From the NCBI GenBank assembly GCA_963797885.1, contig CAWCRQ010000143.1:2349-66348 (forward strand): DNA of 64,000 nt. The letters are read 5' to 3'. The notes under the pieces were generated by a model that was not told the origin of the DNA, ran no database searches, and saw only the letters and a program-made list of their open reading frames with translations. The translations under genes were made by a program, and so were the position numbers. Within the stretch, counting starts at the first letter, position 1. Each line of letters opens with the position of its first letter. This document shows, in pieces, positions 3,473 to 64,000 of the stretch. Origin of the DNA: an uncultured Acidobacteriaceae bacterium. GTDB lineage: Bacteria; Acidobacteriota; Terriglobia; Terriglobales; Acidobacteriaceae.

Positions 3473-4000
3473 AGTAACTGCATGGTAAGAGAGAGTCGGG
3501 GCCAACGACAAGTTACCTGTGTCACGGTGGGGTGCAATTTAGACTTTCTTTCTTGTGCTTTTGTCCTTAGTTTTCTTCTTGTTTTCGAGAGCGCGCGGTA
3601 GGTCGCGACTTTAGTCATTTGCGGCTTTGGTTGGCGGGGGATAAGCTGACAGGACGTTGGTGGGATTTTCTTTAAGCGAAGACCTTCATTAGCGACTCAA
3701 TTCCGAGCCGCGGCGAGGGCGCAGCGAAACGGAGCGTGCTTAGCAAGCGAGCGCCACACGGCACGATCGTAACTCTCATGGAATTACCTTACTAAAAGAC
3801 AGTGTACGAATGGCCGGTGTACCCCGGTACTTTGACGTACCACGGAACAGTTCCTACCATCGAGTTAGTCAGGCAGGTGTCGGTCCGGCGATCCGCAAAG
3901 AGTCGCGGGAAGATATCGGGCTGACGAATTCCAGTTATACGAGTTTTTTTTGGACGATTTTGTTTTACGGAACGGGGAGCCGCGGGAACGGCAAAAGCTT

Positions 4001-4672
4001 ATGAGAAGCCTCGAAACAAATGCGTTGCATCGCAGGCGTCGGGAGAGCGGCTTCACTTTGCTGGAAATGGCGGTGGTGCTGGCGATTTCCATCATCATGT
4101 CGGTGGTCTCGGTCATCAGCCTCATGCCGCTGCTGAATCAGCAGCATGTTACCAATGCATATAACACGACGCTGGCGGCGATGCGTCAGGCGCGCGACAA
4201 TGCGGTGTCGCAGCGGACATCGTACTCGGTGACTTTTTCAAACACTGTCTCGCCTAACACGATCACGGTGGCGCTCGCGTCGGCGGCATTTCAGGGCGAC
4301 CAGAATACCGTGATCTATCAATTGCCGTCGGATGTAAAGTTCTACGCGGCATCGACGATCGCCTCCACCACGCCTCCGGACAGCAGCACCACGGCGAACT
4401 TCGGCTCGGGGGCACACGCGATTGACTTTGGCTACACGGGAAACGGGGGCGCGGGCGGGCAATCGACGGTCTACTTCTGCCCGGACGGTTCGGCGCAGAC
4501 CACGTCCACTTGTGCCGGCTCGGGCAACTGGGATGATGGTGTGGTGTACATCGCGAATCCGCTAAATCTAATGAGTTCGCGGGCGGTAGACCTGTGGGGC
4601 GCAACCGGCCGCATTCACGGATGGCGGCTCTACAGCACTGGGGGGTCAAGCTACCAATGGGTACGTCAATGA
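4001..4672 (+). CDS. Prepilin-type N-terminal cleavage/methylation domain protein (GspH/FimT-like minor pilin)
   Basis: ..RRRESGFTLLEMAVVLAISIIM.. is a class III signal peptide (G|FTLLE plus hydrophobic helix). First gene of a same-strand pilin cluster. Confidence 0.75.
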   Translation: MRSLETNALHRRRRESGFTLLEMAVVLAISIIMSVVSVISLMPLLNQQHVTNAYNTTLAAMRQARDNAVSQRTSYSVTFSNTVSPNTITVALASAAFQGDQNTVIYQLPSDVKFYAASTIASTTPPDSSTTANFGSGAHAIDFGYTGNGGAGGQSTVYFCPDGSAQTTSTCAGSGNWDDGVVYIANPLNLMSSRAVDLWGATGRIHGWRLYSTGGSSYQWVRQ

Positions 4673-5295
4673 TCGGGCGCGGGAAAAGTTCTCAGGTGCG
4701 GAAGCAAGCGGAGAGTGGAGTTTCGCTGCTGGAAGTTGTGATCTCGATGGCCGTGCTGACAGTGGGAATGGTGAGCATGCTGGGCGTGTTCGGGCTGGCC
4801 ATGGCTTCGACGCAGACTTCGCAGCAGAGCATGATCGCCAAGCAACTGGCGAACGAGGCGTACGAGACTATCGTGACCGCGCGCAACTCCGGTCAGATCA
4901 CCTGGGACGACATTCAAAATACGGGCTCCACCAACTGCCCCATCAGCGGCGCCGCCAGTTGCGGCATCTTCGCGAATCCGACGACTCCGCAACCGATGTA
5001 CCAGGCGATAGCGACGGGAAACTACGCCGGCATCCTGGGGACCACTTACGACGTGGGCCAGCCCGAGCAAACTCTACAGGACCCAGGGCCCGACGGGATT
5101 TTTCAGACGGCGGACGATACGTTTATCCCTTTGACCGGCTATAAGCGCACGATTCTGATCGGGCAGGTGACCGACGCGAACGGCAACGTGCTGGCTTCGC
5201 TGCGAAGCGTGACGATCACGGTGCAGTACTCGACTCCGCAGACGAATACGCCGAAAACCTACATTTTGAATTCGTACATTTCGCAATACCAGTGA
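4669..5295 (+). CDS. Prepilin-type minor pilin (PilV/GspI-like)
   Basis: MIGRGKSSQVRKQAESGVSLLEVVISMAVLTVGM.. is a prepilin motif. Its ATG overlaps the upstream stop (ATGA at 4669-4672). Confidence 0.7.
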   Translation: MIGRGKSSQVRKQAESGVSLLEVVISMAVLTVGMVSMLGVFGLAMASTQTSQQSMIAKQLANEAYETIVTARNSGQITWDDIQNTGSTNCPISGAASCGIFANPTTPQPMYQAIATGNYAGILGTTYDVGQPEQTLQDPGPDGIFQTADDTFIPLTGYKRTILIGQVTDANGNVLASLRSVTITVQYSTPQTNTPKTYILNSYISQYQ

Positions 5296-5304
5296 AGGGG
5301 AGTT

Positions 5305-6450
5305 ATGAGCGATCGCTCAAAGCGCGCGAGTGGATTCAGCCTGCTGGAAATGACGATCTCCATGGCACTGGGAGGGATCGTGCTGGCCGCAGCGGTGCAG
5401 ATCTACATCCAGGGGGTGCAGGCGGCCTGGACGACTACGCAGCGGGCGGAGATGCAGCAGGATTTTAGGGCCGCCTCCAACATATTGACGAAGGACCTGA
5501 GCCTGGCCGGGGCGGGACTAGCCCTCGGGGCGCAAATCGCCCTGCCGTCCGCGACCCCTCCGGTTTATGGCTGCGCTCAGACGACGGGGAAGCCGTGCTA
5601 CATCAACGGCGGGTCGGTGCCATATCCCACGCCTTATCTTTACGGGCTGCTCCCGGGATATCAAAAAGGGCCTACGCTGCTCGCGTTGCAGGGACCGACC
5701 GACGTGGTCACGGTGGTATACACGGACAACAATTTTTACTTGGACTGCTACACGGCAACCATCACGAACACGACGACCGTGACCTTCTCACTGCCCACGC
5801 CCACGCCGCCTGCGACGGGGAGCACGAATTGCACTTCGCCGACCGGCAACCCTGGGGTGCAAGCCGTGAGCGATTCGGCGGTTGGACTGACGGCTGGCGA
5901 TCTGGTCTTGTTCACCTTTGGCGCAGCCAACGTGGTGGCCGAAGTCACCGCCAACGCCGCTGGAGACGTCGTCACCTTCGCCGCCAACGATGCGCTGAAC
6001 ATGAACCAAGCGGCAGGAGTTAGCAATAGCCTGGCCCACGTGGCGACGGGCACTACCGGATATGGAACGCGCCTTCTGGTGATCAGCTATTACATCGACA
6101 ACAGCCCCACTCCGCCGCGACTGATGCAGCAGGTCAGTGGACACACACCTATCCCGGTGGCGGAAAACGTGGTTTACCTGCAGTTTACCTATGACCTTTT
6201 CAACGCCACCACCAATAAGCCGGCGGTGGGCTGTTACAACCCTGGCGCTAATCCCGATGGCTGCGGTGGCGCTTCGGCTGGACTTCTGCCCAACCAGATC
6301 ACCAAGATCAACATTGCGAACATGGCGATGGATAGCACTTTGCCGGGCGCGGGATATGGCGGAAGCAGTTATCAGAGAATGGATTTGCAGACATCGGTAA
6401 GCGCGCGGAACCTGACGTACACCAACAACTATCCAGTTGCAGCTCCGTAG
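5305..6450 (+). CDS. Prepilin-type minor pilin (PilW-like)
   Basis: MSDRSKRASGFSLLEMTISMALGGIVLAAAV.. has a prepilin N-terminus. Size and operon position match PilW-type proteins. Confidence 0.7.
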   Translation: MSDRSKRASGFSLLEMTISMALGGIVLAAAVQIYIQGVQAAWTTTQRAEMQQDFRAASNILTKDLSLAGAGLALGAQIALPSATPPVYGCAQTTGKPCYINGGSVPYPTPYLYGLLPGYQKGPTLLALQGPTDVVTVVYTDNNFYLDCYTATITNTTTVTFSLPTPTPPATGSTNCTSPTGNPGVQAVSDSAVGLTAGDLVLFTFGAANVVAEVTANAAGDVVTFAANDALNMNQAAGVSNSLAHVATGTTGYGTRLLVISYYIDNSPTPPRLMQQVSGHTPIPVAENVVYLQFTYDLFNATTNKPAVGCYNPGANPDGCGGASAGLLPNQITKINIANMAMDSTLPGAGYGGSSYQRMDLQTSVSARNLTYTNNYPVAAP

Positions 6451-6473
6451 CGGCGGAGCTGGCGAAGCGGAGT

Positions 6474-9400
6474 ATGACGAAAGAGGACGAGACGTTGGAA
6501 AACGAGGCAATGGGAGCGACCACCATGGGGAGATACAGTAGAAAGGACGCGAGACTGCACACCAAGGGATTCACACTGATTGCATCTTTGCTGATGTTGT
6601 TGCTGCTGTCGGGGATCGCGATCGGGCTGATGCTGATGGTCAACACCGAAGGCAAGGTGGGCGCGACCGATCTGCAAAACAACCTGGCTTTTCACGCCGC
6701 CGAGGGAGGCATCGAGAAGATGTTTTCCGACCTGTCCGCGGTGTTCCAGGCCGCGCAGGCCCCCTCTGCCAGCGCTATCTGCAGCGTAGACAACAATCCG
6801 CCGACGATGGTGGGAGTCACCTGGAAAGACTATTCGGTGACATCGCCGGGTTTGACTTGCCCGGCATCGTCAACGACATCGGTGACCCGGAACTGGGGAC
6901 CGGTCCAATCCGGACCGAACGCGGGTTTGTATGCGCAGATCATCCCGGTAAACATGCTGGTGACGGCGGACTTCACAACCGGCGGGCAGGAAGTGAGCAT
7001 GACACGGCAGGCGCAGGTGGCGCTGATTCCGGTGTTCCAGTTCGGAATGTTTTGCGATGGCGACTGCTCCATCTTCCCCGGCTCCGATATGGTTTTTGCC
7101 GGCCCCGTTCACGCCAATGGGGACTTCTACCCGTTCGTTAATGGTGGCGCCAACTTGACCTTTCAGAGCAAGGTGTCGGTATTCGGCAACATGGTTCGGA
7201 CCTTGCTGCCCAATACCAATGCCGCGAGCATAAAAAAAACCGGCAATGTATATGTTCCAACTTCCAACAGCGCCACGGCTTGCAGCATAACTACGCCAGG
7301 TAACCCGCCATCCACAGCTGCTGGGAATAATTGTGTGCAGCTCGATGCGGTCACCTCCGCCACTTACGGGGACGGCAGTGTGACGGGGATGGGGACCGGT
7401 GCGGCGCAGACGACGGCGAACTATTACAGCGCTTTTAATACTTGGTCGAACGGCACCACTCACGATCAGTTCATCAACGGGAACTATTATGTCACCGGAG
7501 TTAGCACGCCTCCGGGGACGGGAGCCAATAAACTGTCGATGCCGTTCGTCAACGGGACCAACTTCCCTTACGAAATTATTCGGCGGCCCCCGGCGGGCGA
7601 GTCGGCCACGTCACAGCTGGGCGAATCGCGCGAATATAATATGGCGCAGATTCACGTGCTGCTGAGCGACGATCCGGCGGACTTGCCGGGCGGAGCTACG
7701 GATAAGAATAACGTCCGGCTGGCGAATGTAACGCAAACGACGGGCAACACGGTAGTGACGCCGTGGGGAGTTACGATTTCTGCCGCCAACTACGTCCCGG
7801 CGACGTTCGGGACGCCGTCGGCGGGCACCTATAACCTGTACTTTGCCACCGCGTCGAATTCAGTTCCAATTCCCTTCTATTGCGTGGGCACTACCTGCCC
7901 CTCAGACGACTGGTCCCTCCCACCGGTGCAATGGACGGCCGCGATGGCGGCCGCAGATGGAATCACCTATGCCGCGCCCGTGCCGGCTAACGCCCCGATC
8001 TACTGGAATAACGGCCCCGCCCCGACAGTTAGCCTTTGTCCACCAACAGGCGTTATTGCAACCAGCACGCCCGCTCCAACCGCCAACTGCGAGGCGAATG
8101 GTGCCTGGACGACCACTTATCCGTACTACGCTATGCCCAAGCCCTCTCTTCCCGTCGTCGCCGGCGCCCTAACCCCCTATAACTCGACTAGCTCCGATTC
8201 TTGGGGACTGATTGATGGCTGGCTGCGGGTGGAATATCTGAACAATTCCAGCCAATGGGTCGGGGTAACCAACGAATGGCTGCAACTGGGATTTGCGCGG
8301 GGAGTGACAGCACCGACCGCCGCCTCTCCTAACCCGATCAATCCGAACGCGATTCTGCTGCTACAAGAGCCGGCCGATCGCTCCACGACTAGCACGCTCG
8401 CCACCATCTGCACTTCGACTTCCTGCCCCGCAGGATCGCTGACCGCCCTCTCCACCGGTATTACGGCTACCCCCAATGCCACTGCCCCGGTCTGTAACAC
8501 GTGGAGCGGGGCCGTGGGTACTAGCACCTGCCTAACGTGGACGCCGGGCGTGCCGCCGCAACTGGCGGCGGATACGGCAGCGTTAGCAGCATCAGGGACG
8601 GCAGCGACGACAGGGAAAGCGGGCGATTGGGCGTTCGGCCTTACCCCCGCCCCTCCCACTACGACAACACCGCAGAGCATCACCATGTACAACTGGTATC
8701 CCATCAACTTCTACGATGCCCGCGAAGGCGAGCCTCGGGACATAGACTGGTCAACCGTCAGGGCGGCGGACAACAGTTGCACGACCAACGGGGTGATGAA
8801 CGCGGTCGAAATCGATGTGAGCAACCTGATGGACTGGCTAAACGGAACGACCCCCGGAAGCGGCCAAAGTGTGAATTCTTCGGCGCAAAACGGCTACATA
8901 CTGTATTTCTCGGATCGGCGGGGCATGCTGCCGAATCCGAACCTAACTTCTTCGCACCCTGCAAACACTAAGAGCGGGGACTCGGGGCTGGAGGACACGA
9001 TTAACTCCGCAAGTATCGTCGGCACACCCAACAACACGCTGGAGACGAAGATGACCGGAAAGGCTTTTTCTCCCGAGGACGACAATCAGAACGGCGTACT
9101 CGACAACTGGGGCGCGTATAACCTGGGATTAGGCTTCTACGGTACGGTTTTGCCGGCTAACAATACCACGAACCTGAATGCCAAGATCGTCAGCACCAAC
9201 CCGGCACCCAATCCGTATGGTACGGTGGCAGCCAGCGGCGGCGATCGGATTAACTTTTGCGGCAGAACCGGGCGCAAGAACTGGGTTAGCGGGGCGCGCC
9301 ACGTTCTGAAACTGGTGGATGGGTCGCTCGGCAACGTACCGCTGATGCCCGCTCCAGTGGTGTATAACTCAGTAAACTACTGGGGTGGATTCACGGTGGC

Positions 9401-37645: not shown

Positions 37646-37690
<45 letters not shown>

Positions 37691-38039
37691 GGGAAATTCC
37701 CGCCCAATTCCGAACAACTCCACCCAACTAAGTCCAACCAAACATTTGAAAAGTGCCGCCGCGTCCTTGCCTCACTTTGGCTACGGCTGGCCGCAGTTCA
37801 CGGACAGAAAGCGGACAACTCGGTCAGGGCGTGAGAGTCATCATCAATGATCACTTCGAGGTGGTAATCGTGATCGAGGTTGTGGACCGCGCATAGTTTC
37901 CGGCTTGCCAACAAACCGTCCCGAATCCTGGTCATCACTTCCCACAAGCCCCTTTCTGGATAGCTTCCGGTTGGCCGACAACACACCCGGAATCGTCGCA
38001 TCCTCTCCGACGGGCTGCGCACGCTATAATTGCCGCCAC

Positions 38040-38370
38040 GGATGGCACTCACCTTTGGCACGAAGCTTGGCCCACCAAATTCTCTCGCCGCTTGGGGCGA
38101 GCGGCATGGGCGTGGTCTACAAAGCCGAAGACACCCGCCTGCAGCGCTTTGTCGCCCTGAAGTTCTTGCCGGAAGAACTCGCCCGCGACCCGCAAGCGCT
38201 AGCCCGTTTCCAGCGCGAGGCCCAGGCCGCTTCCGCTTTGAACCACCCCAATATCTGCACGATCTACGACATCGGCGAGCAGGATGGCAAGGCGTTCATT
38301 GCCATGGAGTTTCTGGACGGCGCCACGCTGAAGCATCGCATCGCCGGCAAGCCGCGGGACAACGACGTAT
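38040..38370 (+). pseudogene. N-terminal fragment of a Ser/Thr protein kinase (frameshifted, truncated)
   Basis: [11 protein letters not shown], then a frame change to ..[68 protein letters not shown] (kinase subdomains I-V only). Confidence 0.7.
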
Positions 38371-40939: not shown

Positions 40940-41195
40940 GTTTGCGAAGGAGCTGATGTAGATTATCCAGCCCGCGTTCAGAAAAGGTTTCTCCATCCTC
41001 GTCGGCAAGTCGCTAATTCTGAGTAGCGGGATTGGGCGGAAAAACTCGTCAACTAACAACCTGATTTTCGAACGCTACCCACTCGGCGAACTCACAATGA
41101 GTGTAATTGATTCCATGACAATGTCGGCTCCCATTCCCGGGTAAAGTTGGTGGTGCTGAAGCCAACCAACGGGCTCGGGAGAAAGGAGCCGAACG

Positions 41196-42259
41196 ATGAT
41201 CATTATAGGAGTAGATTTCCACCCCGAGTTTCAGCAGATCGCGTTGTTGGATACGGACAGCGGAGAGTTCCAGGAAAAGCGACTGATGCATCGCGAGGAG
41301 GCGGAGAAGTTTTACCGCGTTCTCGCGGCAGCCGGTCAGAAGGTGCGAGTGGGCATGGAAGCCAGCGGACACGCTCGCTGGTTCGAACGGCTGCTGGCGG
41401 AGTTGCAGTTGGATTGTGGATCGGGGACGCGGCAGAGATTCAGAGCAAGCGAGCGCGCAAGCAGAAGACAGACCGGCAGGATGCGCAACACATTCTGAAG
41501 CGCATGCTGAAGGATGACTTTCCGCGGATTTGGGTGCCGAACTGGGAGAACCGGGATCTGCGGCAACGGCTGTGGCATCGGCACCGTCTGGTGCAAGCGC
41601 GGACTCGAATCATGAACCAGTTGCAGGCGCTAGCAATCAATGAAGGACTGCGCTGTAAGAAGCGGCTGTGGCGGGCGGGCGGGCGGCAGCAACTGGAATC
41701 GTTCCGGTTGGCACCATGGGCCAGCCGACGGCGGAGTGATCTGCTGGAGTTGCTAGATCGGCTGAGCCCGAAGATTGCAGAGTTAAGCCAGGCGATCGAG
41801 CAAGAAGCGGCGAAGCAGCCCGAAGCGCAGCGACTGAGGACGCATCCGGATGTGGGTGCTTTGACCGCTTTGGCTTTCGTGCTGATCATCGGCAACGTGG
41901 AGCGCTTTCAGTGCGGGAAACAGATAGCGAGTTATCTGGGGCTGGTACCGCTGGAAAAATCGAGCGGCAACCGGCGACGCTTGGGTCACATCACCAAACA
42001 AGGGAGTTCGATGTTGCGCTTTCTGCTAGTGGAAGCGGCCCAGGTTACGGTGCGCAGCCTGCCGGAGTGGCATAGCCAGTACTTCCATCTGATGATGCGA
42101 CGGGGACGGAAGACAGCGAAAGTGGCGATGGCGCGCCGACTGGCGATTCGTTTGTACTGGATGTGGAGGCAGAGACTGGATTACGAGGAGTTAGTCAAGC
42201 TTGGTTCGCACGCGGGACAGCCCGGAAATCGCGATGGTGTGCAGCGAAACATCGAGTAA
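41196..42259 (+). mobile_element. IS110-family transposase gene, interrupted by one frameshift near 41405-41415
   Basis: MIIIGVDFHPEFQQIALLD..VRVGMEASGHARWFERLLAELQL, then a frame change to LWIGDAAEIQSKRARKQKTDRQDA..HPDVGALTALAFVLIIGNVERFQCGKQIASYLGLVPLEKSSG.. (DEDD_Tnp_IS110 plus Transposase_20 patterns). Element ends are not defined. Confidence 0.85.
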
Positions 42260-52576: not shown

Positions 52577-52804
52577 GGCGACGGCCTCCCATGCCGCAGG
52601 ATTGGAACTACGGCAGACCGTCGGGGCAATGCAAGCACTGCACCAGGTACCGGCTTAGATCAAGATGACGAGGTTGAGGATCTTGATCACGGTGAGAACC
52701 GAATTCGGCTGGGTTGTCCGCGGTAAGGGGCATCGGTTATTCTGGCGAGGCTGGGACGCGTCTCCCTGCATCGCCCCGTGTCCGTTTCTCCCTGGAGTTC
52801 ACCC

Positions 52805-53953
52805 ATGACGTTGACCCGGTTCGTCACTAAGAACGCCTTCCGCAACAGGCGCCGCAGCATTCTCACCGTGCTGAGCATCGCTTTCTCTTTGCTGCTGCTC
52901 ACGCTGATGATGGCCATCTGGCGCGGCTTTTACCTGGACGACGGCAGCAAGGAATCGGCGCAGCGCCTGGTCGTGCGGCACCGCGTTTCGCTGACGTTTT
53001 CACTTCCCAGTTTCTACCGGGAAAAGATCCGGGCGATTCCTGGAGTGGTTGCCGTTGTCCCGGTTTCGTGGTTTGGCGGAATTTATAAGGATCAGAAGCC
53101 GGAAAACTTCTTCGCCCAGTTCGCCGTCGATCCGGAAGAATTCTTCAAGGTCTACCGCGACATCCAGATGCCCGAGGATCAAATCACCGCGTGGCAGCGG
53201 GACCGGCAAGGCGTGATCGTCGAGGACGATCTGGCCCAGAAATATGGATGGAAGCTGGGTGACCGCATCGTGTTGCAGGGTACGATTTATCCCTTCAATC
53301 CTGAACTAAACATCCGCGGCATTTACCACACTGACCCGGCCGCAAAGTCGGTTTACTTTCATACCAAGTACATGGAGGAGTCGGTCGGCTTCTTCAAAGG
53401 TCAGGCTGGCACATTCAGCGTGCTTGCGGCCAATCCCTCCGATGTCAGCCAGATCACGACCTCCATCGACGACATGTTCCGCAACTCGCCGCAACCGACC
53501 AAGGCGGAGAGCGAAAAGGCCTTCGGCCTCGAGTTCGTGGCCATGATGGGCAACGTGAAAGCGTTCATCCTGAGCATCTGTTCGGCTGTAGTTTTCGCGA
53601 CTTTGCTGGTCTCGGCCAACACCATGGCGATGTCGATCCGCGAGCGCACTCGCGAAGTGGCCGTTCTCAAAACTCTCGGTTTCACGCGCCGCAGCGTTCT
53701 TGGCTTATTTGTCAGTGAGGCGGTCGCCCTGTCATTAGTGGGCGGGCTGATCGGCATTTTCCTGGGTTGGCTCATGGTGTATGGGCTGACCCATTCGCCG
53801 CAGTTCTTCAGCTTCTTCCCCCTGAAGGTGACGGCCGGCATTGGTGTGCTTTCCATGGTGACGGCCGGTTTGGTGGGGCTGCTGAGTTCAGCGGTGCCGT
53901 CGTATCACGCATCGCAGGTCAACATTGTCGACGGACTGCGCCACATCGGCTGA
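52805..53953 (+). CDS. ABC transporter permease, FtsX/MacB-type (paralogue 1)
   Basis: MTLTRFVTKNAFRNRRRSILTVLSIAFSLLLL.. is followed by a large periplasmic loop and a C-terminal FtsX 3-TM bundle (..RTREVAVLKTLGFTRRSVL..). Confidence 0.85.
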   Translation: MTLTRFVTKNAFRNRRRSILTVLSIAFSLLLLTLMMAIWRGFYLDDGSKESAQRLVVRHRVSLTFSLPSFYREKIRAIPGVVAVVPVSWFGGIYKDQKPENFFAQFAVDPEEFFKVYRDIQMPEDQITAWQRDRQGVIVEDDLAQKYGWKLGDRIVLQGTIYPFNPELNIRGIYHTDPAAKSVYFHTKYMEESVGFFKGQAGTFSVLAANPSDVSQITTSIDDMFRNSPQPTKAESEKAFGLEFVAMMGNVKAFILSICSAVVFATLLVSANTMAMSIRERTREVAVLKTLGFTRRSVLGLFVSEAVALSLVGGLIGIFLGWLMVYGLTHSPQFFSFFPLKVTAGIGVLSMVTAGLVGLLSSAVPSYHASQVNIVDGLRHIG

Positions 53954-54027
53954 TTTTGTGTAGGGGCGGACGCGCTCGTCCGCCCGGTCGAGCGAAGCTC
54001 GACGGTTCTTGAGATCAGGACGAACTT

Positions 54028-55179
54028 ATGACGCTGGGAAGTTTCATCGTGCGCAACACGTTTCGCAACAAGCGGCGCAGCCTGCTGACCATGATCAGCA
54101 TCAGCTTCTCGCTGCTGTTGCTGACGCTGATGATCTCCATCTGGCGCTCGTTTTACGTGGATCAGGTCGCGCCCGAAGCGTCGCGGCGGCTCATCATTCG
54201 CGATCGCGTTTCGCTGGCGTTTTTTCTGCCGGCGTACTATCGCGACAAGATTCGCAGCGTCCCCGGCATCACCGCAGTCGCTCCGCTGACCTGGTTTGAA
54301 GGCCGCTACATCGACAACCGCCCCGAGCACTTTTTTGCGCGGCTGGCCACCGATCCCGACGAATATCTGAAGGTTGCATCGGACAAAATCACGCCGCCGG
54401 ATCAGGTCAAGGCCTGGCAGCAGGATCGCGCCGGCGCGCTAGCGGACGTCACTTTGGCCGATAAGTACGGCTGGAAACTCGGCGACCACATTCACCTTCA
54501 AGGCACGATTTTCCCCTACGATCTCGATCTGACGATTCGTGCCATTTATCATCGTGATCCGCCGCAGAACGCGCTTTATTTCCACACTAAATACTTGGAA
54601 GAAGCCGTGCCGTGGTTCAAGGGACAGGCGGGATGGTATGCCGCGCAGGTCGATTCAGCGGATCACGTCGCATCCGCGTCGAAACAAATTGATGACATGT
54701 TTCGTAACTCGCCGCTGCAGACCAAGAGCGAGAGCGAGAAGGCGTTTCAGCTCGGCTTTGTCGCCTCGCTGGGAAACGTGAAGGCATTCATTCTTGGAAT
54801 CTCCGGCGCGGTGATGTTCGCCATTATGCTGGTTTCGGCCAACACCATGGCGATGTCGGTGCGCAGCCGCACCCGCGAAGTGGCTGTGCTAAAGACGCTC
54901 GGCTTTACGAAACAGCGCGTGCTCTCGATCTTCGTGAGCGAAGCCATCGCTCTTTCGGTGGCCGGAGGAGTGCTGGGAGTTCTGGTGGCGATCCCGGTCA
55001 TCACAGGCATGACACATCGTTTCATCGGGCTCGGCATTCCTTTGGACATGAAGGTGAAAGCGCCGACCGCAGGATTGGCGTTGCTGGTGGCTTTGATTCT
55101 GGGCGTGGTGAGCGGCTATCTGCCAGCGTATCGTGCATCGCGCATGAATATTGTGGAGGGGCTACGGCATATTGGGTGA
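54028..55179 (+). CDS. ABC transporter permease, FtsX/MacB-type (paralogue 2)
   Basis: MTLGSFIVRNTFRNKRRSLLTMISISFSLLLL..RTREVAVLKTLGFTKQRVL.. is clearly paralogous to 52805-53953. Confidence 0.85.
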   Translation: MTLGSFIVRNTFRNKRRSLLTMISISFSLLLLTLMISIWRSFYVDQVAPEASRRLIIRDRVSLAFFLPAYYRDKIRSVPGITAVAPLTWFEGRYIDNRPEHFFARLATDPDEYLKVASDKITPPDQVKAWQQDRAGALADVTLADKYGWKLGDHIHLQGTIFPYDLDLTIRAIYHRDPPQNALYFHTKYLEEAVPWFKGQAGWYAAQVDSADHVASASKQIDDMFRNSPLQTKSESEKAFQLGFVASLGNVKAFILGISGAVMFAIMLVSANTMAMSVRSRTREVAVLKTLGFTKQRVLSIFVSEAIALSVAGGVLGVLVAIPVITGMTHRFIGLGIPLDMKVKAPTAGLALLVALILGVVSGYLPAYRASRMNIVEGLRHIG

Positions 55180-55245
55180 AGAAGCTTTCCCACCGTCCGA
55201 AAACCGCGAAGGGTGGGCCATCCTTCGAGCAGAGAGAGTTGAACT

Positions 55246-56433
55246 ATGGCGATTCCGATCAGCTATAACATCCGCAATCTAAGGCTACGCAAAGGTCTCA
55301 CGGTTATGACCGCGCTGGGCATCGCGCTCACCGTCACCACGGCGATTTTCCTGATGGCGCTGGTGGCCGGGCTTAACCGCGCCTTCGTCTCGAGCGGCAG
55401 CAAGCTGAACGTGCTGGTGCTGCGCAAGGGATCAGAGTCGGAACTGACCGGCGGATTCGATGCTGCCCTCTTCCCCACGCTGAAAGTGCTTCCGGGCATC
55501 GCCAAAGATAGTCACGGCGAGCCGCTCGCCTCCGGCGAGTGGAACGTGGTGATCGTGCTGCCGCGGAAAGACGGCACCGGGGAAGTGAACGTAACCGTGC
55601 GCGGCATGATGCCCGACGGGCTTGAGATGCGCCAGTTGCCGGGCGCGGACGGCAAGCCGAGCGTGAAGCTTGTGGAAGGGCGCTGGTTCGAGACCGGGCA
55701 GCGCGAAGTAGTAGTGAGCAAGTCCATCCGCGAGCGCTTCGCGCATGCCAATATCGGCGACACGATGGAGTTCGGCAAAGGATCGTGGAAAGTAGTCGGC
55801 GTGTTTGACGCGGGCGGTTCGGCATACGAGTCTGAAATCTGGGGCGACGTGAATCAGATGGCCTCCGACTTCGACCGCCAAGGAGGCTTTTCGTCGGCGT
55901 ATCTGCGTGCGACTGATCCTATCGCCGCCGAGGCACTCAAGAATCGCGTGAGCGACGATCAGCGGCTGAAGCTCGACGGTTTGATCGAGACCGATTATTA
56001 CGCCAAGCAAACCAGTTCCGGCACGCCCATCAAGATCATCGGGATCGTGGTGGCGATCATTATGGCGATCGGATCGATTTTCGCCGCCATGAACACCATG
56101 TATGCGGCGGTGGCGTATCGCGGGCGCGAGATTGCGACTTTGCGGGTCATCGGCTTTTCCCGGCCGGCGATTCTGACGTCGTTCGTGCTGGAATCGTTGA
56201 TTCTGGCTCTACTGGGCGCGGCGCTGGGCATTGTGCTCATGCTGCCGTTCAACGGCATGCAGACGGGGACCTCGAACCAGGTCACGTTCAGCGAGGTCGT
56301 TTTCGCCCTGCGCATTACATGGTCGGTAGCAATCGCAGCCATGTGTTTTGCCCTGGTGATGGGATTTTTCGGCGGGCTCGCTCCCGCCTGGCACGCGGCG
56401 CGGCAGAATATATTGAACGCGCTGCGGGGATAG
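55246..56433 (+). CDS. ABC transporter permease, FtsX/DevC-like (paralogue 3)
   Basis: MAIPISYNIRNLRLRKGLTVMTALGIALTV..GREIATLRVIGFSRPAIL.. is a more divergent FtsX-family permease. Confidence 0.85.
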   Translation: MAIPISYNIRNLRLRKGLTVMTALGIALTVTTAIFLMALVAGLNRAFVSSGSKLNVLVLRKGSESELTGGFDAALFPTLKVLPGIAKDSHGEPLASGEWNVVIVLPRKDGTGEVNVTVRGMMPDGLEMRQLPGADGKPSVKLVEGRWFETGQREVVVSKSIRERFAHANIGDTMEFGKGSWKVVGVFDAGGSAYESEIWGDVNQMASDFDRQGGFSSAYLRATDPIAAEALKNRVSDDQRLKLDGLIETDYYAKQTSSGTPIKIIGIVVAIIMAIGSIFAAMNTMYAAVAYRGREIATLRVIGFSRPAILTSFVLESLILALLGAALGIVLMLPFNGMQTGTSNQVTFSEVVFALRITWSVAIAAMCFALVMGFFGGLAPAWHAARQNILNALRG

Positions 56434-56458
56434 CAGCACTTCGCTCGGCGCGGAATGT

Positions 56459-56600
56459 TTTGAAAGGGCACGCCTTAAGGCGTGCCGCCAGGCAACTGCA
56501 ACGAGCGCGGCTTTAGCCGCTGGGGGCGTTGCCTCAGGGCCTGAAGGCCCAATGCAACTGGGGCTTTCGGGCGGCGTGGCTGAAGCCACGCCCTTTCAAA
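56459..56600. repeat. 142-nt GC-rich multi-hairpin intergenic element (REP/BIME-like)
   Basis: Outer arms TTTGAAAGGGC / GCCCTTTCAAA enclose GGCACGCC-TTAA-GGCGTGCC, GCGGC-TTTA-GCCGC, GGGCC-TGAA-GGCCC and GGCGTGGC-TGAA-GCCACGCC, plus AGGCAAC..GTTGCCT. Confidence 0.6.
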
Positions 56601-56657
56601 GCGATGCGGAGAGAGGTTGAATGACACAATCTCAACGGCAGTTCGTAATTTTCAAAT

Positions 56658-58040
56658 ATGGCGATTGATACCAAACACGAAGATCTGCAGAGCCTGCGCA
56701 TCGACCGCTCGCAGCGCGGCGACAATGGCGGCGGCGAGCCGCCGGCCTGGACGCGGCGTTTCATCATCGTCGGGATCGCGATGGTCGTGCTGCTCGGCCT
56801 GATCGCAGTCGCTTACCGCGCGTTTTCTGCGAGCGTGCCGGAAGTTGAGGTCGCCCGCGCCGCGGCTGAGTCGAGCGATGTAGGCGGAACGGTGCTGTCC
56901 GCGACCGGCTACATCGTGGCCCATCACACCATCAACGTAAACTCAAAGGTCACGGGCCGCCTGGCGTGGATTGGCGTGGAAAAGGGCGACAAGGTCAAGG
57001 AGGGCCAGGTGCTGGTCCGCCTGGAAGACCAGGAATTTCGCGCTGCGTATGAGCAGGCCGAAGGCGCCGTAGCCAACGCCCGCTCCTATCTCGAAGAACT
57101 GCAGCACGGTTCGCGGCCGCAGGAGATTCAGCAGGCGCAGCACAATCTCGACGAGGCCCGCGCCACGCTGGTTAACGACAAGCTGACGCTTGACCGCACA
57201 AAAGAGCTTACCGCCGCAGGCGTAGTCTCACGGCAGCAACTAGACGACGCGACCGCCAAGTTCGAGGCCGATCAGCAGCGCGTGAATTCGCTGCAGAGAG
57301 CGTTTGAGCTGACGTATATCGGTCCGCGGCAGGAAGAGATCGCCCGCGCCCAGGGCGCTCTCGTGCAGGCTCAAGGGCAGCTGGATTATGCCAAGTCCCA
57401 GCTGGACGCCACCATCATTCGCGCGCCCGTGACCGGCACCATTCTCGATCGCACTGCGGAGAAAGGCGAGCTGATTACGGCGCAGTTTGCCAGCGCGGCC
57501 GCAGGCGGGCCTCAGGGATCGGTTGTATCGCTCGCTGACCTGAACGATCTGCAGGTGGAGCTCGACATCGCCCAGGCCGACTTTGCGCGACTCAGCCCAG
57601 CGCAGAAGGCAAAAGTCACGACCGACACGTATCCAGACAAGGAATACGACGGCGTCATCGCGCAAATTTCACCCGAGGCGAACCGGCAGAAGGCGACGGT
57701 GCAAGTAAAGGTTCAGGTGCTGAATCCGGACAAGTATCCCGAGATCCAGCTGCGGCCAGAGATGAACGCAACTGTAAAATTCCTGGCCAATGACACACCG
57801 AAGGATGCGAAAGGACCTTCCGGCGTTTTTGTTCCGTCGGCGGCGATTCGCGATCGCGACGGCAAGAAAATTGTTCTGGTTGCGTTCAACGGCAAGGCTG
57901 TCGCTCGCGAGATTCACGTACTGAGCCCGCGCAGCGATGGAGCGTTGGTTGACGGGCTGGTCGGCGGCGAGAGCATCATCACGACCGCGCCGGCAACTTT
58001 GAAGGACGGGGACAAAATCAGAATCAAGGGTCAAAACTAA
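56658..58040 (+). CDS. Efflux transporter periplasmic adaptor (HlyD/MFP, MacA/DevB-like)
   Basis: N-terminal TM anchor, lipoyl/barrel-sandwich segments (..GYIVAHHTINVNSKVTGRLAWIGVEKGDKVKEGQVLVRL..), a long coiled-coil hairpin, then ..IIRAPVTGTILDR.. Confidence 0.88.
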   Translation: MAIDTKHEDLQSLRIDRSQRGDNGGGEPPAWTRRFIIVGIAMVVLLGLIAVAYRAFSASVPEVEVARAAAESSDVGGTVLSATGYIVAHHTINVNSKVTGRLAWIGVEKGDKVKEGQVLVRLEDQEFRAAYEQAEGAVANARSYLEELQHGSRPQEIQQAQHNLDEARATLVNDKLTLDRTKELTAAGVVSRQQLDDATAKFEADQQRVNSLQRAFELTYIGPRQEEIARAQGALVQAQGQLDYAKSQLDATIIRAPVTGTILDRTAEKGELITAQFASAAAGGPQGSVVSLADLNDLQVELDIAQADFARLSPAQKAKVTTDTYPDKEYDGVIAQISPEANRQKATVQVKVQVLNPDKYPEIQLRPEMNATVKFLANDTPKDAKGPSGVFVPSAAIRDRDGKKIVLVAFNGKAVAREIHVLSPRSDGALVDGLVGGESIITTAPATLKDGDKIRIKGQN

Positions 58041-58067
58041 GAAGAACAATCCTCCGAAAGGGCAATC

Positions 58068-58781
58068 ATGAGCACAGTCGCACAAACCAACGTTGCCACC
58101 AGCACCAAAGTTGTGCAGGCGCGGGGCGTCACGAAAGTCTTCAAGCGCGATGCTTTCGAAGTGAAGGCGCTGGACGATGTTTCCATCGACATCGCCAAGG
58201 GAGAATTCCTTGCGCTCATGGGTCCTTCGGGCTCGGGCAAAACCACGCTACTGAATATGATCGCCGCCATTGATCGCCCGACGGGCGGCGAACTGCTGGT
58301 GCAAGGACAGGACATTTTCCGCTTCAGCGATGGCCAGATCGCGCGCTGGCGCAACGAGCACATCGGCTACGTTTTTCAGACGTTCAATCTGATTCCTGTG
58401 CTCACCGCGTTCGAAAACGTGGAATTGCCGCTGCTGCTGACCAGGCTGAATGCGCAGCAGCGACGCGACCACGTGATGACAGCGCTGAAACTGGTTGGAC
58501 TGGAAGATCGCGTTGACCACCTGCCGAAGCAGCTCTCCGGTGGACAGGAACAGCGCGTTGCCATCGCGCGGGCGATTGTCAGCGACCCAACCTTAGTGCT
58601 GGCCGACGAGCCGACGGGCGACCTCGATAGTCACTCGGCCACGGAAGTTTTGGAGATTCTGAAGCGGTTGAATGAGGACTTTCACAAGACGATCGTGATG
58701 GTCACGCACGATCCGCACGCAGCTTCGTATGCGCACGTGACCCGGCATCTGGAAAAAGGAATGCTGCTGCCACCGGGCTAA
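58068..58781 (+). CDS. ABC transporter ATP-binding protein (MacB/LolD/DevA-like)
   Basis: Walker [11 protein letters not shown]-loop, signature LSGGQEQR, Walker [14 protein letters not shown]-loop VTHD. Confidence 0.92.
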
Positions 58782-61412: not shown

Positions 61413-61606
61413 CGCGCTGGCGTACCTGAGACTGTCGCTATGAGCATCTCGGGCCATAAGACGCGGTCCATGTTCCAGAGATACGACATCTGCAACGAGC
61501 GCGACCAGCGCGAAGCGCTGCGGGCAACGGAGGCTTATCGGCAGCAGCAGGCCGCACAAGCCGAAAAGATCACGGTCATGCCGCAAAAATCCGTCAGGGT
61601 CCAGTG
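61413..61606 (+). pseudogene. C-terminal fragment of a tyrosine integrase (contains the catalytic-Tyr region)
   Basis: [42 protein letters not shown].. (..GH.T.s...RY motif). Only ~64 codons remain, on the strand opposite the N-terminal fragment. Confidence 0.65.
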
Positions 61607-61674
61607 AAAGGCGGACAGAAGGCGGACAATCAGAAGGGGCACCCGCTATCGAGTGCCCCTAACTTCTTGAAAAA

Positions 61675-61740
<66 letters not shown>

Positions 61741-62092
61741 TCATTGATTCTAAAGGGCATTAGCACCGTACAAAGGCACGATAACCGCTGTACCTTTGGG
61801 GTTTTGCTGGACAATTTGCTGGACAATTCCCGGCCGAGGCCGGACTCAGCGATTGGGCCGGAATGATTCGGCTATCTTCAGTGGCTTAGGTAAGCCCCCG
61901 ATCACCACCACAATCAACTTTTCTAGTGCACCGTCGCCATAGATGTTCATCCGGCGGAAAATCCGCGGCCTCCAACATCCCAGGATCCCGCCTTTCCGGA
62001 GCAGGCCGGGATTGACATTTATCGATAACATGGCCATGATAAATAACACGGCCATGATACTTATGATGGCAGTGCCAAGAGCAAATAAAGCC

Positions 62093-63286
62093 ATGTCCAA
62101 TCAAAGACCCATTCCGCCGAAAGGCTCTGCCAGCGTTTACGAGCGTCAGCTCGCCGGCCTTTTCCGGAGCAATGGCTGGCAGGTCAAAGTTCATCCATCG
62201 CTAGGCAATCAACAAGCAGACCTGATCGTTGCGCAGAATGGCTTTCATTACATCGTGGAACTGAAGACGGCTTCCGAAGGGCGGCGTGACCGCCTGGTGC
62301 CCTTGCTCGCGCAGGCAGTCTTACAGGCACAGGCCCTTGCGAAGGCGTCGCCGGAACCGGCATTTCCACTTGCAGTAATTGCCGCGCCTGTTATTTCTCC
62401 CAGCGTTGTCGTCCATCTGCAACGTTTTCTGGCCGAGAACGCGCCCCAATCCGCTATCGGCCTACTCGACAGTAACGGTTTGCAATTCTTTGCTGGGCAA
62501 GGGTTAGAGAAGCTGAATGCTCCACGCTCCAGCCGTGTCCGACGCCAGCAACATCGGCTGCCGGAGTCGGCGCCGCTCTTCTCCGACCTCAACCAGTGGA
62601 TGCTCAAAGTCCTGCTCGCCCCGCTGATCCCCGAAGGTCTTCTGCACGGGCCGCGCGAACAGTACCACAATGCCTCTCAGTTGGCGGAGGGTGCTGGCGT
62701 CTCAGTGATGAGCGCCTTCCGCCTCGTGCGACAGTTACGGCACGAGGGCTTTTTGGACCGCAACGACGGGATACTGCGCCTGGTTCGCCGGGACGAGTTG
62801 ATGCGCCGTTGGCAGGCCGTTTATCTCCGTGCCATGCCTGAGCTGCCTCTGCGCTGGCTCGTTCCCGCCAAGGGAAACGAGCGCCGGTTGTCGGAGAGTC
62901 TGCATAACTATATGGCCCATCCAGACAAAAGCAGGGACGTGGAACCACGGACATGTTTAGGGCTTTTCGCTGCTGCCGAGCAACTGGGTTTCGGCTTTGT
63001 GCATGGGGTTCCGCCGTCGTTCTATCTTGAAAATCTGGATCGGGAGGCACTGGCACGCATTGGGCTCTCGCCAGAAGGGGCAGAGCGGGCATCAGATGTT
63101 TCTGTGCGTGTTCCTGCCTTCCGTGAGTCCGTCTTCCGCGCCGCCGTGTTGCGCAAGGGCGTCCCGGTTGCAGATGTTCTTCAGGTGTGGCTCGACGTGG
63201 CCGCTCATCCGGCACGCGGAGCGGCACAGGCCGAGGAGATTCGGCGTCGCGCGCTGGCCCCGATCTTTAAGGATAAAGCGCCATGA
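62093..63286 (+). CDS. PD-(D/E)xK-like nuclease-fold + winged-helix protein, AbiEi-antitoxin-like
   Basis: From MSNQRPIPP..: YERQLAGLFRSNGWQVKVHP..QADLIVAQNGFHYIVELKTAS has a D..ExK pattern. In the middle, ..YHNASQLAEGAGVSVMSAFRLVRQLRHEGFL is a wHTH. The C-terminal domain of ~200 aa is unassigned. The track ORF start (61943) is upstream and implausible. Confidence 0.55.
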   Translation: MSNQRPIPPKGSASVYERQLAGLFRSNGWQVKVHPSLGNQQADLIVAQNGFHYIVELKTASEGRRDRLVPLLAQAVLQAQALAKASPEPAFPLAVIAAPVISPSVVVHLQRFLAENAPQSAIGLLDSNGLQFFAGQGLEKLNAPRSSRVRRQQHRLPESAPLFSDLNQWMLKVLLAPLIPEGLLHGPREQYHNASQLAEGAGVSVMSAFRLVRQLRHEGFLDRNDGILRLVRRDELMRRWQAVYLRAMPELPLRWLVPAKGNERRLSESLHNYMAHPDKSRDVEPRTCLGLFAAAEQLGFGFVHGVPPSFYLENLDREALARIGLSPEGAERASDVSVRVPAFRESVFRAAVLRKGVPVADVLQVWLDVAAHPARGAAQAEEIRRRALAPIFKDKAP

Positions 63287-64000
63287 CGGCCAACCGGGAC
63301 GTCAAAGATTTTGCGCGTCTGATAGAGGCTCTGCATCCGTGGCTGAACCAGATCGTCGTTATCGGCGGATGGGCGTACCGTCTCTATCGCTTGCATCCTC
63401 TCGCGCAGCAATTGGAGTACGAACCCCTTGCAACCTTTGATACGGATGTTGCCGTTCCAGCGCACCTGTCTGTAGCAGGACCGAACATGCACGAATGCTT
63501 AATAGCGAGTGGTTTTCTGGAAGAGAAACTTGGAGAGGCGCAGCCACCGGCCGCGCATTACCGCCTCGTCTCGGCTGAGACCGGCTTCTATGCGGAGTTT
63601 CTGACGCCACTTGAAGGCAACGAATACAAGCGCGGTGGTCAGCGGGATGCGACAACGCGAATCGCCGGCGTGTCTTCTCAGAAACTCAGGCATATTGATT
63701 TGCTGCTCAAAAATCCGTGGGCAGTTGAGATCGACGCGACCAATGGTTATCCAACCGCGGAGACCAGGCGAGTACAGCTTCCCACCCCCGCGAGCTTTTT
63801 GGCGCAGAAGGCTCTCATCCACCATAAACGCGACCGCATCGACCGGGCCAAAGATGTTCTGTACATACACGACACCATCGAGGCCTTTGGTGGGGCCTTG
63901 ACAGCAATACGGAAGCAATGGGTTACGGACGTCAAACCAGGTCTGCACGCGAATGGCATACGTAAGATCGAGAAGGCCGCAAACGTTATCTTTGCAGAGG
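63283..64000 (+). CDS. Minimal nucleotidyltransferase-fold protein (AbiEii / GSU2403-like), 3' end beyond the window
   Basis: Not in the ORF track because it has no stop in the window. Hand translation from ATG 63283 (overlapping the upstream stop, ATGA) gives MTANRDVKDFARLIEALHPWLNQIVVIGGWAYRLY..LATFDTDVAV..RAKDVLYIHD.., with hGG and DxD NTase signatures. The frame stays open for 239 codons to the edge. Confidence 0.6.
   Translation, partial: MTANRDVKDFARLIEALHPWLNQIVVIGGWAYRLYRLHPLAQQLEYEPLATFDTDVAVPAHLSVAGPNMHECLIASGFLEEKLGEAQPPAAHYRLVSAETGFYAEFLTPLEGNEYKRGGQRDATTRIAGVSSQKLRHIDLLLKNPWAVEIDATNGYPTAETRRVQLPTPASFLAQKALIHHKRDRIDRAKDVLYIHDTIEAFGGALTAIRKQWVTDVKPGLHANGIRKIEKAANVIFAE

Follow-up and report, generated by a model that had tools for sequence, protein, structure and literature searches.

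What is the overlapping gene pair that closes the right-hand end of this 64,000-nt stretch of contig CAWCRQ010000143.1, from an uncultured Acidobacteriaceae bacterium? The original prediction described the pair, open reading frames (ORFs) 1 and 2, as an AbiE-like module in which a winged-helix "antitoxin" carries an N-terminal PD-(D/E)xK nuclease-like domain and is followed by a minimal nucleotidyltransferase. Having analyzed the whole stretch (hereafter the window) together with relatives of both genes, we consider it reasonably probable that the pair is a two-gene toxin–antitoxin-type module, of the same kind as AbiE and MenAT and borne by an integrative island, with ORF2 as the toxin and ORF1 as its partner. 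Modules that combine a winged-helix regulator with a nucleotidyltransferase toxin are already known. The branch encountered here, in which a PF12281 protein is joined by a three-domain partner and a triple operator, is undescribed in the Pfam text, in PADLOC, in NCBIfam and in the literature that we searched.

The two genes lie on the same strand:

62093..63286, + strand: ORF1, predicted three-domain regulator/antitoxin (translation, relatives, AlphaFold model).
63283..64000, + strand: residues 1–239 of 280 of ORF2, a nucleotidyltransferase of the PF12281/GSU2403 family and predicted toxin (Pfam, AlphaFold/Foldseek, conservation).

The product of ORF1 is 397 residues long, and the peptide NGWQVKVHP...QADLIVAQNGFHYIVELK, on which the nuclease-like assignment had been based, spans its residues 27–58. 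ORF2 starts at 63283 inside an ATGA, with its ATG at 63283–63285 and the ORF1 stop codon TGA at 63284–63286, and contains both VIGGWAYRLY and FDTDVAV. The ORF1 coordinates, the overlap and the quoted peptides of both proteins were all re-found in the sequence. Within the window, 239 codons of ORF2 are present before the gene crosses the right edge at 64000, beyond which the sequence is known for 439 nt. A Logan contig (L001), 100% identical to window positions 61706–64000, supplies the rest: ORF2 runs off the window, as proposed, yet it is not truncated, being a complete gene of 280 residues that ends 123 nt beyond the edge. Judged by their relatives, both ORFs are genuine coding genes: ORF1 has more than 3000 relatives of about 397 residues (395–398), and ORF2 about 1600 of about 274 residues. 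An alternative ORF1 start at ATG 61943, which would add 50 residues, was rejected; the length of the relatives, together with a promoter and operator that fall inside the extension, excludes it and places the start at 62093.

ORF2 matches the Pfam family PF12281 (NTP_transf_8) with an E-value of 1e-24 and 88.2 bits, against a gathering cut-off of 26.3, over profile positions 2–202 of 218. The same domain is carried by all 120 listed ORF2 relatives, for which the NCBI name is "GSU2403 family nucleotidyltransferase fold protein". Sequence searches of the PDB, made with the single protein and with a family profile, returned no match and no MenT or AbiEii chain. An AlphaFold model, made on a 98%-identical relative with a shallow alignment, reached a predicted local distance difference test score (pLDDT) of 88 and a predicted template modeling score of 0.88. 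When this model was compared with the PDB by Foldseek, the nine best matches were all MenT3/TglT (Rv1045), with Foldseek probabilities of 0.85–1.0 (at least 0.97 for eight of the nine) and template modeling scores (TM-scores) of 0.39–0.52 over whole-chain alignments of about 310–330 columns. The next matches, all at probabilities below 0.4, were CdnC, Cid1, CCA-adding enzymes, ANT and LinB. The nucleotidyltransferase fold claimed for ORF2 is borne out by the PF12281 match, and the structure prediction agrees, with MenT3 as the best match.

Across 63–79 ORF2 relatives, little or no variation is seen at G28-G29, T51-x-D53-x-D55, E105, K176, R183, K190-D191 and D197. Key residues, identified by conservation, map to the window as follows:

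63364..63369, + strand: ORF2 G28-G29.
63433..63435, + strand: ORF2 T51.
63439..63441, + strand: ORF2 D53.
63445..63447, + strand: ORF2 D55.
63595..63597, + strand: ORF2 E105.
63808..63810, + strand: ORF2 K176.

By motif position, the published counterparts are G49-G50, T65 (the phospho-acceptor), D67, D69, K173, R180 and D192 in AbiEii, and phospho-Ser78, D80, K189 and D211 in MenT3. Because its invariant residues mirror those of AbiEii and MenT3, ORF2 appears to retain both the generic polymerase-β motifs and the toxin-specific positions. Motifs I and II, a Ser/Thr before the DxD, the motif III Lys/Arg and the downstream Asp are all present, and the toxin-type features include a hydroxyl residue exactly two positions ahead of the DxD and a Lys followed seven residues later by an Arg. 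A motif search over all fetched loci recovered only ORF2 relatives. From the predicted fold and these residues, we read ORF2 as a polymerase-β-fold nucleotidyltransferase that is a distant sister of the DUF1814 toxins and stands outside the DUF1814 family. Our literature search found no paper on the PF12281/NTP_transf_8/GSU2403 family.

The Foldseek list also bears on a simpler explanation, in which the pair is no conflict system and ORF1 is an ordinary repressor controlling a small-molecule or antibiotic nucleotidyltransferase. Aminoglycoside and lincosamide nucleotidyltransferases do occur far down that list, at probabilities of 0.13–0.21, and NCBI labels the Burkholderia gene "RpiR family". 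On the other side, MenT3 toxins head the structural matches, ORF2 retains the T-x-D-x-D, K and D that are specific to the toxins, the C-terminal domain of ORF1 is not an SIS domain, ORF2 is often lost or broken beside an intact ORF1, and the context is mobile and patchy. We therefore regard an ordinary repressor–enzyme pair as improbable.

The AlphaFold model of ORF1, built from an alignment of 92 diverse relatives, has a pLDDT of 93 and comprises three domains:

62120..62497, + strand: N-terminal PD-(D/E)xK (Hjc/Mrr-like) domain, residues 10–135 (Foldseek against PDB and BFVD, Hjc alignment, motif conservation).
62141..62143, + strand: E17, catalytic-type residue.
62219..62221, + strand: D43, catalytic-type residue.
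62258..62260, + strand: E56, catalytic-type residue.
62264..62266, + strand: K58, catalytic-type residue.
62579..62827, + strand: winged helix-turn-helix, residues 163–245, starting with the conserved FSDLNQWMLK (profile and Foldseek matches).
62828..63283, + strand: C-terminal α/β domain, residues 246–397, predicted to be toxin-neutralizing (conservation).

This order of nuclease-like, winged-helix and C-terminal domains is the one that had been proposed; the C-terminal domain is smaller than the proposed size of about 200 residues, measuring about 150 (246–397).

The N-terminal domain, at residues ~10–135, has an α-β-β-β-α-β core. Its best Foldseek matches in the PDB are AF1548, XisH, Hjc, the R2 retrotransposon endonuclease domain and SfsA, and those in BFVD are viral restriction endonucleases and Holliday-junction resolvases. 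Profile matches to Hjc, Mrr_cat, PDDEXK_9 and SfsA are weak, and the PDB search yielded only weak Hjc and winged-helix matches. Against the Hjc Pfam model, ORF1 scores 17.9 bits with a cut-off of 21.1; one relative (L022) reaches 22.4 bits against Mrr_cat, with a cut-off of 21, and many relatives have a precomputed PF04471 annotation. E17, D43, E56 and K58 align with E9, D33, E46 and K48 of Hjc. On the predicted structure, the N-terminal domain is a PD-(D/E)xK fold with its tetrad intact in the window copy, and the assignment made earlier from the D..ExK spacing is upheld by the fold and by the Hjc-aligned residues. Of the 92 diverse relatives, 44 have a strict D-E-K triad, as do 99 of 140 more closely related sequences; Burkholderia copies read HVVLK at this motif, and about 30% of family members have lost catalytic residues.

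The winged helix (163–245) is the best-conserved part of ORF1. Profiles of HTH_IclR, MarR and HTH_Crp_2 match the query and 22–32 of the 92 relatives, and IclR and CRP structures are among the Foldseek matches, in agreement with the earlier placement of a winged helix, here of MarR/IclR/Crp type, after the nuclease-like domain. The C-terminal domain gave no Pfam match at E ≤ 1, none by PDB profile search and nothing among the top Foldseek matches, and it is not SIS by Pfam or Foldseek. It holds four of the six invariant ORF1 columns (D361, Q364, R375 and G376) and the motif WLDVxxHPARG. Among the relatives, which comprise 1007 cluster representatives at E ≤ 1e-3, the three-domain architecture is kept at full length down to ~35% identity. 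Candidate natural versions consisting of the winged helix and C-terminal domain only were rejected as artefacts, the short homologues starting at an internal Met169 where contigs end. The three-domain form is the norm for the family and the fused nuclease-like domain is no one-off. The original prediction had set this fusion apart from the described AbiE architecture; we found no literature description of a nuclease-fused antitoxin, and within this large family the fusion is usual.

Upstream of ORF1, a promoter coincides with a set of tandem palindromes:

62012..62040, + strand: sigma-70-like promoter, with −35 TTGACA at 62012–62017, a 17-nt spacer and −10 CATGAT at 62035–62040.
62025..62042, no strand: operator unit 1, ATAACATGGCCATGATAA, which fits TTAnCATGG/CCATGnTAA and overlaps the −10 element.
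62043..62060, no strand: operator unit 2, ATAACACGGCCATGATAC.
62061..62078, no strand: operator unit 3, degenerate, with the core GATGGCAGTG at 62065–62074 and three mismatches (placed by the 18-bp register of relatives).

With 10 of 12 matches, this is the sole promoter-like site in 61600–62300, and its −35-like TTGACA falls at 62012, the coordinate at which the module had been taken to begin. The 18-nt tandem repeat at 62025–62060 provides the first two units, which are good in the window. In 53 of 79 related loci, the interval from a TTGAC box to the start codon contains the core CATGGCCATG exactly three times, and the core-to-core spacing is 18 bp in 121 of 130 cases; shuffled controls give almost none. 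The consensus unit is the 18-bp palindrome TTAnCATGG/CCATGnTAA, and the repeat pattern is present in relatives down to 45% protein identity. The TTGAC box stands at a fixed distance before the first core, usually 26–27 nt, in 51 of the 79 loci, and the last core ends 8–12 nt upstream of the start codon. Elsewhere in the 64-kb window the palindrome motif does not occur, and orphan ORF1 genes mostly retain the repeats. The triple palindromes are probably an autoregulatory operator, and we infer that the winged helix binds them to repress the operon, in the way that AbiEi acts on inverted repeats of its own.

A one-genome-per-species scan recovered 368 sites encoding an ORF1 relative. The best 80 are nearly all from Acidobacteriota, with single metagenome-assembled genomes (MAGs) of Acidimicrobiia, Rokubacteria, Vicinamibacterales and Eremiobacterota type; the closest is Granulicella sp. 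UBA5172, with an ORF1 identity of 77%. An ORF2 relative lies immediately downstream in 65 of 79 ORF1-selected loci, and nearly all intact pairs overlap (43 of 46), 33 by 4 nt and 10 by 1 nt. Overall, the pair is present at hundreds of loci. It is also found on six Burkholderia/Paraburkholderia megaplasmids (35% identity for ORF1, 38% for ORF2) and on one IMG/VR contig, the 4-nt overlap being retained in both settings and the copies adjoining integrases and insertion sequence (IS) elements. Neither NCBIfam nor PHROGs gave a usable match for either protein. In the related loci there was no third conserved gene and no defence-gene neighborhood, a tyrosine integrase being the only recurrent neighbor. 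In one uncultured Acidobacteriota MAG (L067), 26 tRNA genes on one strand (3185–7406) lie ~2.6 kb upstream of the module copy.

The two genes are not lost equally. Among 63 metagenome loci selected for an intact ORF2 and with upstream room, a full ORF1 is present in 61, a partial one in 2 and none is missing it altogether; among 77 loci selected for an intact ORF1, 46 also have an intact ORF2, 19 a broken one and 12 none at all. Such an imbalance is what a toxin (ORF2) and its antitoxin (ORF1) should produce, because ORF2 is never found alone (0/63) and ORF1 frequently occurs with ORF2 broken or absent (31/77). In the closest longer relative (L165, positions 1946–2772 and 2892–4610), whose ORF1 is 89% identical, a frameshift divides ORF2 in two, and a DEAD/ResIII helicase gene comes next.

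The same counts weigh on an arrangement with the roles reversed, of the HEPN-MNT type (type VII), in which ORF1 would be a DNA-cutting toxin targeted by its winged helix and ORF2 an antitoxin that nucleotidylates it. The module does resemble HEPN-MNT in being a two-gene conflict module with a minimal nucleotidyltransferase, nucleotidyltransferases serve as antitoxins there (PMC3632139), and in the window copy of ORF1 the E-D-ExK tetrad, which aligns with that of Hjc, is complete. However, a toxin should not outlive its antitoxin, as ORF1 would then do, and the nuclease triad is gone in about 30% of relatives (Burkholderia HVVLK), whereas the catalytic residues of ORF2 are invariant. The nucleotidyltransferase of HEPN-MNT has an RNase as its partner; in the present pair, unequal gene loss and a fold like that of MenT3 favor the nucleotidyltransferase as the toxin, ORF2 resembling the toxin MenT3 and not the MNT antitoxins. 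The antitoxin is, moreover, usually the first gene of its operon. A reversal of roles is accordingly highly improbable in our view.

The toxin–antitoxin reading invites comparison with three known groups of proteins. AbiE of Streptococcus agalactiae and Lactococcus lactis, a COG5340-DUF1814 pair, was described as type IV and is now argued to be type VII. AbiEi has a winged helix and recognizes palindromic repeats of the promoter from which it is expressed (PMC3985639), and AbiEii is a polymerase-β nucleotidyltransferase toxin with hGG, T-x-D-x-D, a K and an R seven residues apart, and a downstream acidic residue (bioRxiv 10.64898/2026.01.19.700257; PMC3985639). Like AbiE, the present module is bicistronic with the regulator gene first, a 4-nt overlap, a winged helix paired with a polymerase-β nucleotidyltransferase, and promoter palindromes. 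Unlike AbiE, its ORF2 belongs to PF12281 and not PF08843, and its ORF1 is about twice the size of AbiEi, with a central winged helix, an additional N-terminal PD-(D/E)xK domain and a C-terminal domain without detectable AbiEi similarity. The operators differ as well, with three tandem 18-bp palindromes here and two 23-bp inverted repeats in AbiE. The label "AbiE-like" can be kept as an analogy and at the level of the superfamily, because of the MenT3-like fold, the toxin-specific residues, the 4-nt overlap and the promoter palindromes; it does not hold as a family assignment, there being no AbiEii or AbiEi match.

MenA3-MenT3 of Mycobacterium tuberculosis (Rv1044-Rv1045, TakA-TglT) offers the nearest solved structure to ORF2. 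MenT3 extends tRNA 3'-CCA ends and blocks tRNA charging (PMC7450476), and the MenA3 antitoxin induces its auto-phosphorylation (PMC11375011). The phospho-acceptor position is shared, the DxD following two residues after S78 in MenT3 and after T51 in ORF2, and so is the catalytic Lys. The identity is 12–15% and the TM-score ~0.5, MenA3 is a 22.5-kDa two-domain protein without a nuclease-like domain, and ORF2 is known from sequence and model alone. The Hjc/Mrr nucleases (PF01870, PF04471; AF1548, PDB 1y88) share their core and the E...D...ExK residues with the N-terminal 125 residues of ORF1. In ORF1, unlike in these nucleases, the domain shares its polypeptide with a winged helix and a C-terminal domain, is encoded upstream of a toxin-like nucleotidyltransferase, and has catalytic residues that are not universal.

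Several results weigh against the toxin–antitoxin reading. In the Pfam scan at E ≤ 1, ORF2 had no match to AbiEii (PF08843), and the Pfam models AbiEi_1 to AbiEi_4 did not match ORF1. AbiEi 6Y8Q and Rv2827c were absent both from the top 50 Foldseek matches of ORF1 and from its PDB profile search. The similarity between ORF2 and MenT3 is distant at 12–15% identity, with Foldseek E-values of 1e-3 to 4e-2. PADLOC-DB v2.0 gave no model match at E ≤ 1 for ORF1 or for the 239-residue window part of ORF2, and neither protein was found in deposited phage genomes. The ORF1-selected and ORF2-selected loci come from different collections, and some cases of a broken ORF2 may be long-read assembly errors in MAGs. 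Finally, the antitoxin role of the C-terminal domain is deduced only from gene order, conservation and the gene-loss asymmetry. As for AbiEi itself, AbiEi_2 is touched by only 2 of the 92 ORF1 relatives, at E 1e-4, and a very remote homology of ORF1 to AbiEi is conceivable.

In the mechanism that we propose for the toxin–antitoxin module, free ORF2 would arrest growth, most likely by adding nucleotides to tRNA 3' ends. ORF1 would be made first, the ATGA overlap coupling translation of both genes, and its winged helix, as a dimer, would bind the tandem 18-bp palindromes over the promoter and repress the operon. The C-terminal domain would neutralize ORF2, either by binding it or, in the manner of AbiE and MenAT, by inducing auto-phosphorylation of Thr51, which stands two positions ahead of the catalytic DxD. 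The gene structure, folds, motifs, conserved pairing, gene-loss asymmetry and operator repeats are shown by the analysis; that ORF2 is toxic and acts on tRNA, that ORF1 represses the operon, how ORF1 neutralizes ORF2 and any part that the module plays in phage defence are points that we infer. The PD-(D/E)xK domain would be an added module acting as a sensor or second effector; in the window copy it may cut or clamp DNA, because all four Hjc-type catalytic residues are present. For the core circuit it is probably inessential, since the catalytic residues are gone from about 30% of relatives.

A larger part for this domain is conceivable. In a combined restriction and abortive-infection defence, the nuclease-like domain of ORF1 would recognize or cut invading DNA and so free or activate the ORF2 toxin. 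All full-length members of the family join the nuclease fold to the regulator, about 70% of close relatives retain the triad, the module is found on islands next to integrases and tRNA genes, and AbiE is an abortive-infection system (PMC3985639). Against these stand the missing PADLOC match, the dispensability of the catalytic residues in a sizeable minority and the lack of a conserved third gene or defence neighborhood in the loci searched. We judge such a defence unlikely but worth serious consideration, and it would be the most interesting outcome. We also entertain, as a rather doubtful idea, that ORF1 is a bifunctional "sensing antitoxin" whose PD-(D/E)xK domain senses or cleaves invading or abnormal DNA and relays this through the winged helix and C-terminal domain, freeing the MenT-like toxin.

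The surroundings of the module point to a mobile context. Upstream it is bounded by one feature:

61676..61737, − strand: 3' fragment (~61 nt) of tRNA-Asn(GTT), an att-like repeat (Rfam, repeat copy).

This fragment scores 30.9 bits with Rfam, covers only model positions 9–63 and is missing the 5' acceptor strand; the ARAGORN call at 61676–61756, of an odd length of 81 nt, is a truncated pseudo-tRNA. Its 3' 45 nt are repeated identically at 37646–37690 (− strand), so that the window has two direct copies and neither gene is intact. The two fragments look like attachment (att) sites of successive integrations, and a functional tRNA-Asn probably lies beyond the window's right end. From its place on the 5' side of the second fragment, the module would therefore belong to a further element with an intact tRNA-Asn beyond 64000. 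Among the related loci, 13 have a tyrosine integrase within 4 kb downstream and at least 8 have an opposite-strand tRNA gene 0.1–6 kb downstream. The earlier notion of a second tRNA-Asn island at this site finds support, short of proof for this genome, in that integrase/tRNA geometry; the island context is plausible, and in the window itself only the tRNA fragment is visible. In base composition the module is not distinct from its surroundings.

Other observations concern the DNA on either side of the two fragments. Between the second fragment and the ORF1 promoter, 61803–61826 is a perfect tandem duplication of TTTGCTGGACAA. Beside the same fragment, a short ORF at 61440–61607 (+ strand) ends in a tyrosine-recombinase box-II-like motif and may be a last integrase remnant, for which hidden Markov model and BLAST searches gave no support; the same 55-residue ORF precedes the 89%-identical ORF1 in L165. 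A Ser/Thr protein kinase gene is apparently split and inverted, one part at 37905–38330 (+ strand) and the other at ~61270–59517 (− strand). Kinase subdomains I–V adjoin the first tRNA-Asn fragment, and the portion from the DFG motif to the end, with tetratricopeptide repeats, adjoins the second on the other strand. Un-inverting ~38.3–61.3 kb, a segment that includes an IS110-family transposase (41147–42259), would rejoin the kinase with ~40 residues missing. To the left of the kinase fragment, 52778–58781 holds a MacB/FtsX-type ATP-binding cassette (ABC) efflux cluster that is unrelated to the module. It has at least two MacB_PCD/FtsX permeases, a probable HlyD-like adaptor (56658–58040) and a probable ABC ATPase (58068–58781), the latter two named by eye from translations.

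The nucleotidyltransferase toxins studied so far, AbiEii and MenT1-4, all belong to DUF1814 and are accompanied by small or two-domain antitoxins. The present locus points to a third branch, PF12281, with ~1600 sequence clusters, as a sister of the DUF1814 toxins. The obligate partner of the PF12281 toxin is a 400-residue three-domain protein whose clusters number more than 3000 at 90% identity and ~1000 at 50%. Features that lend themselves to testing are an invariant Thr at the phospho-acceptor position, the triple operator and a nuclease site kept in most members, and the family lets antitoxin-induced auto-phosphorylation be examined as a general means of control outside DUF1814. For annotation, the gain concerns genes found commonly in Acidobacteriota of soil and peat, whose present labels are "hypothetical" or "RpiR family". 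The locus also raises the question of what a restriction-enzyme fold contributes to an antitoxin. If the sensing-antitoxin idea is true, the operon would be a defence system not described before, one that couples restriction-like sensing of DNA with an abortive arrest of translation.

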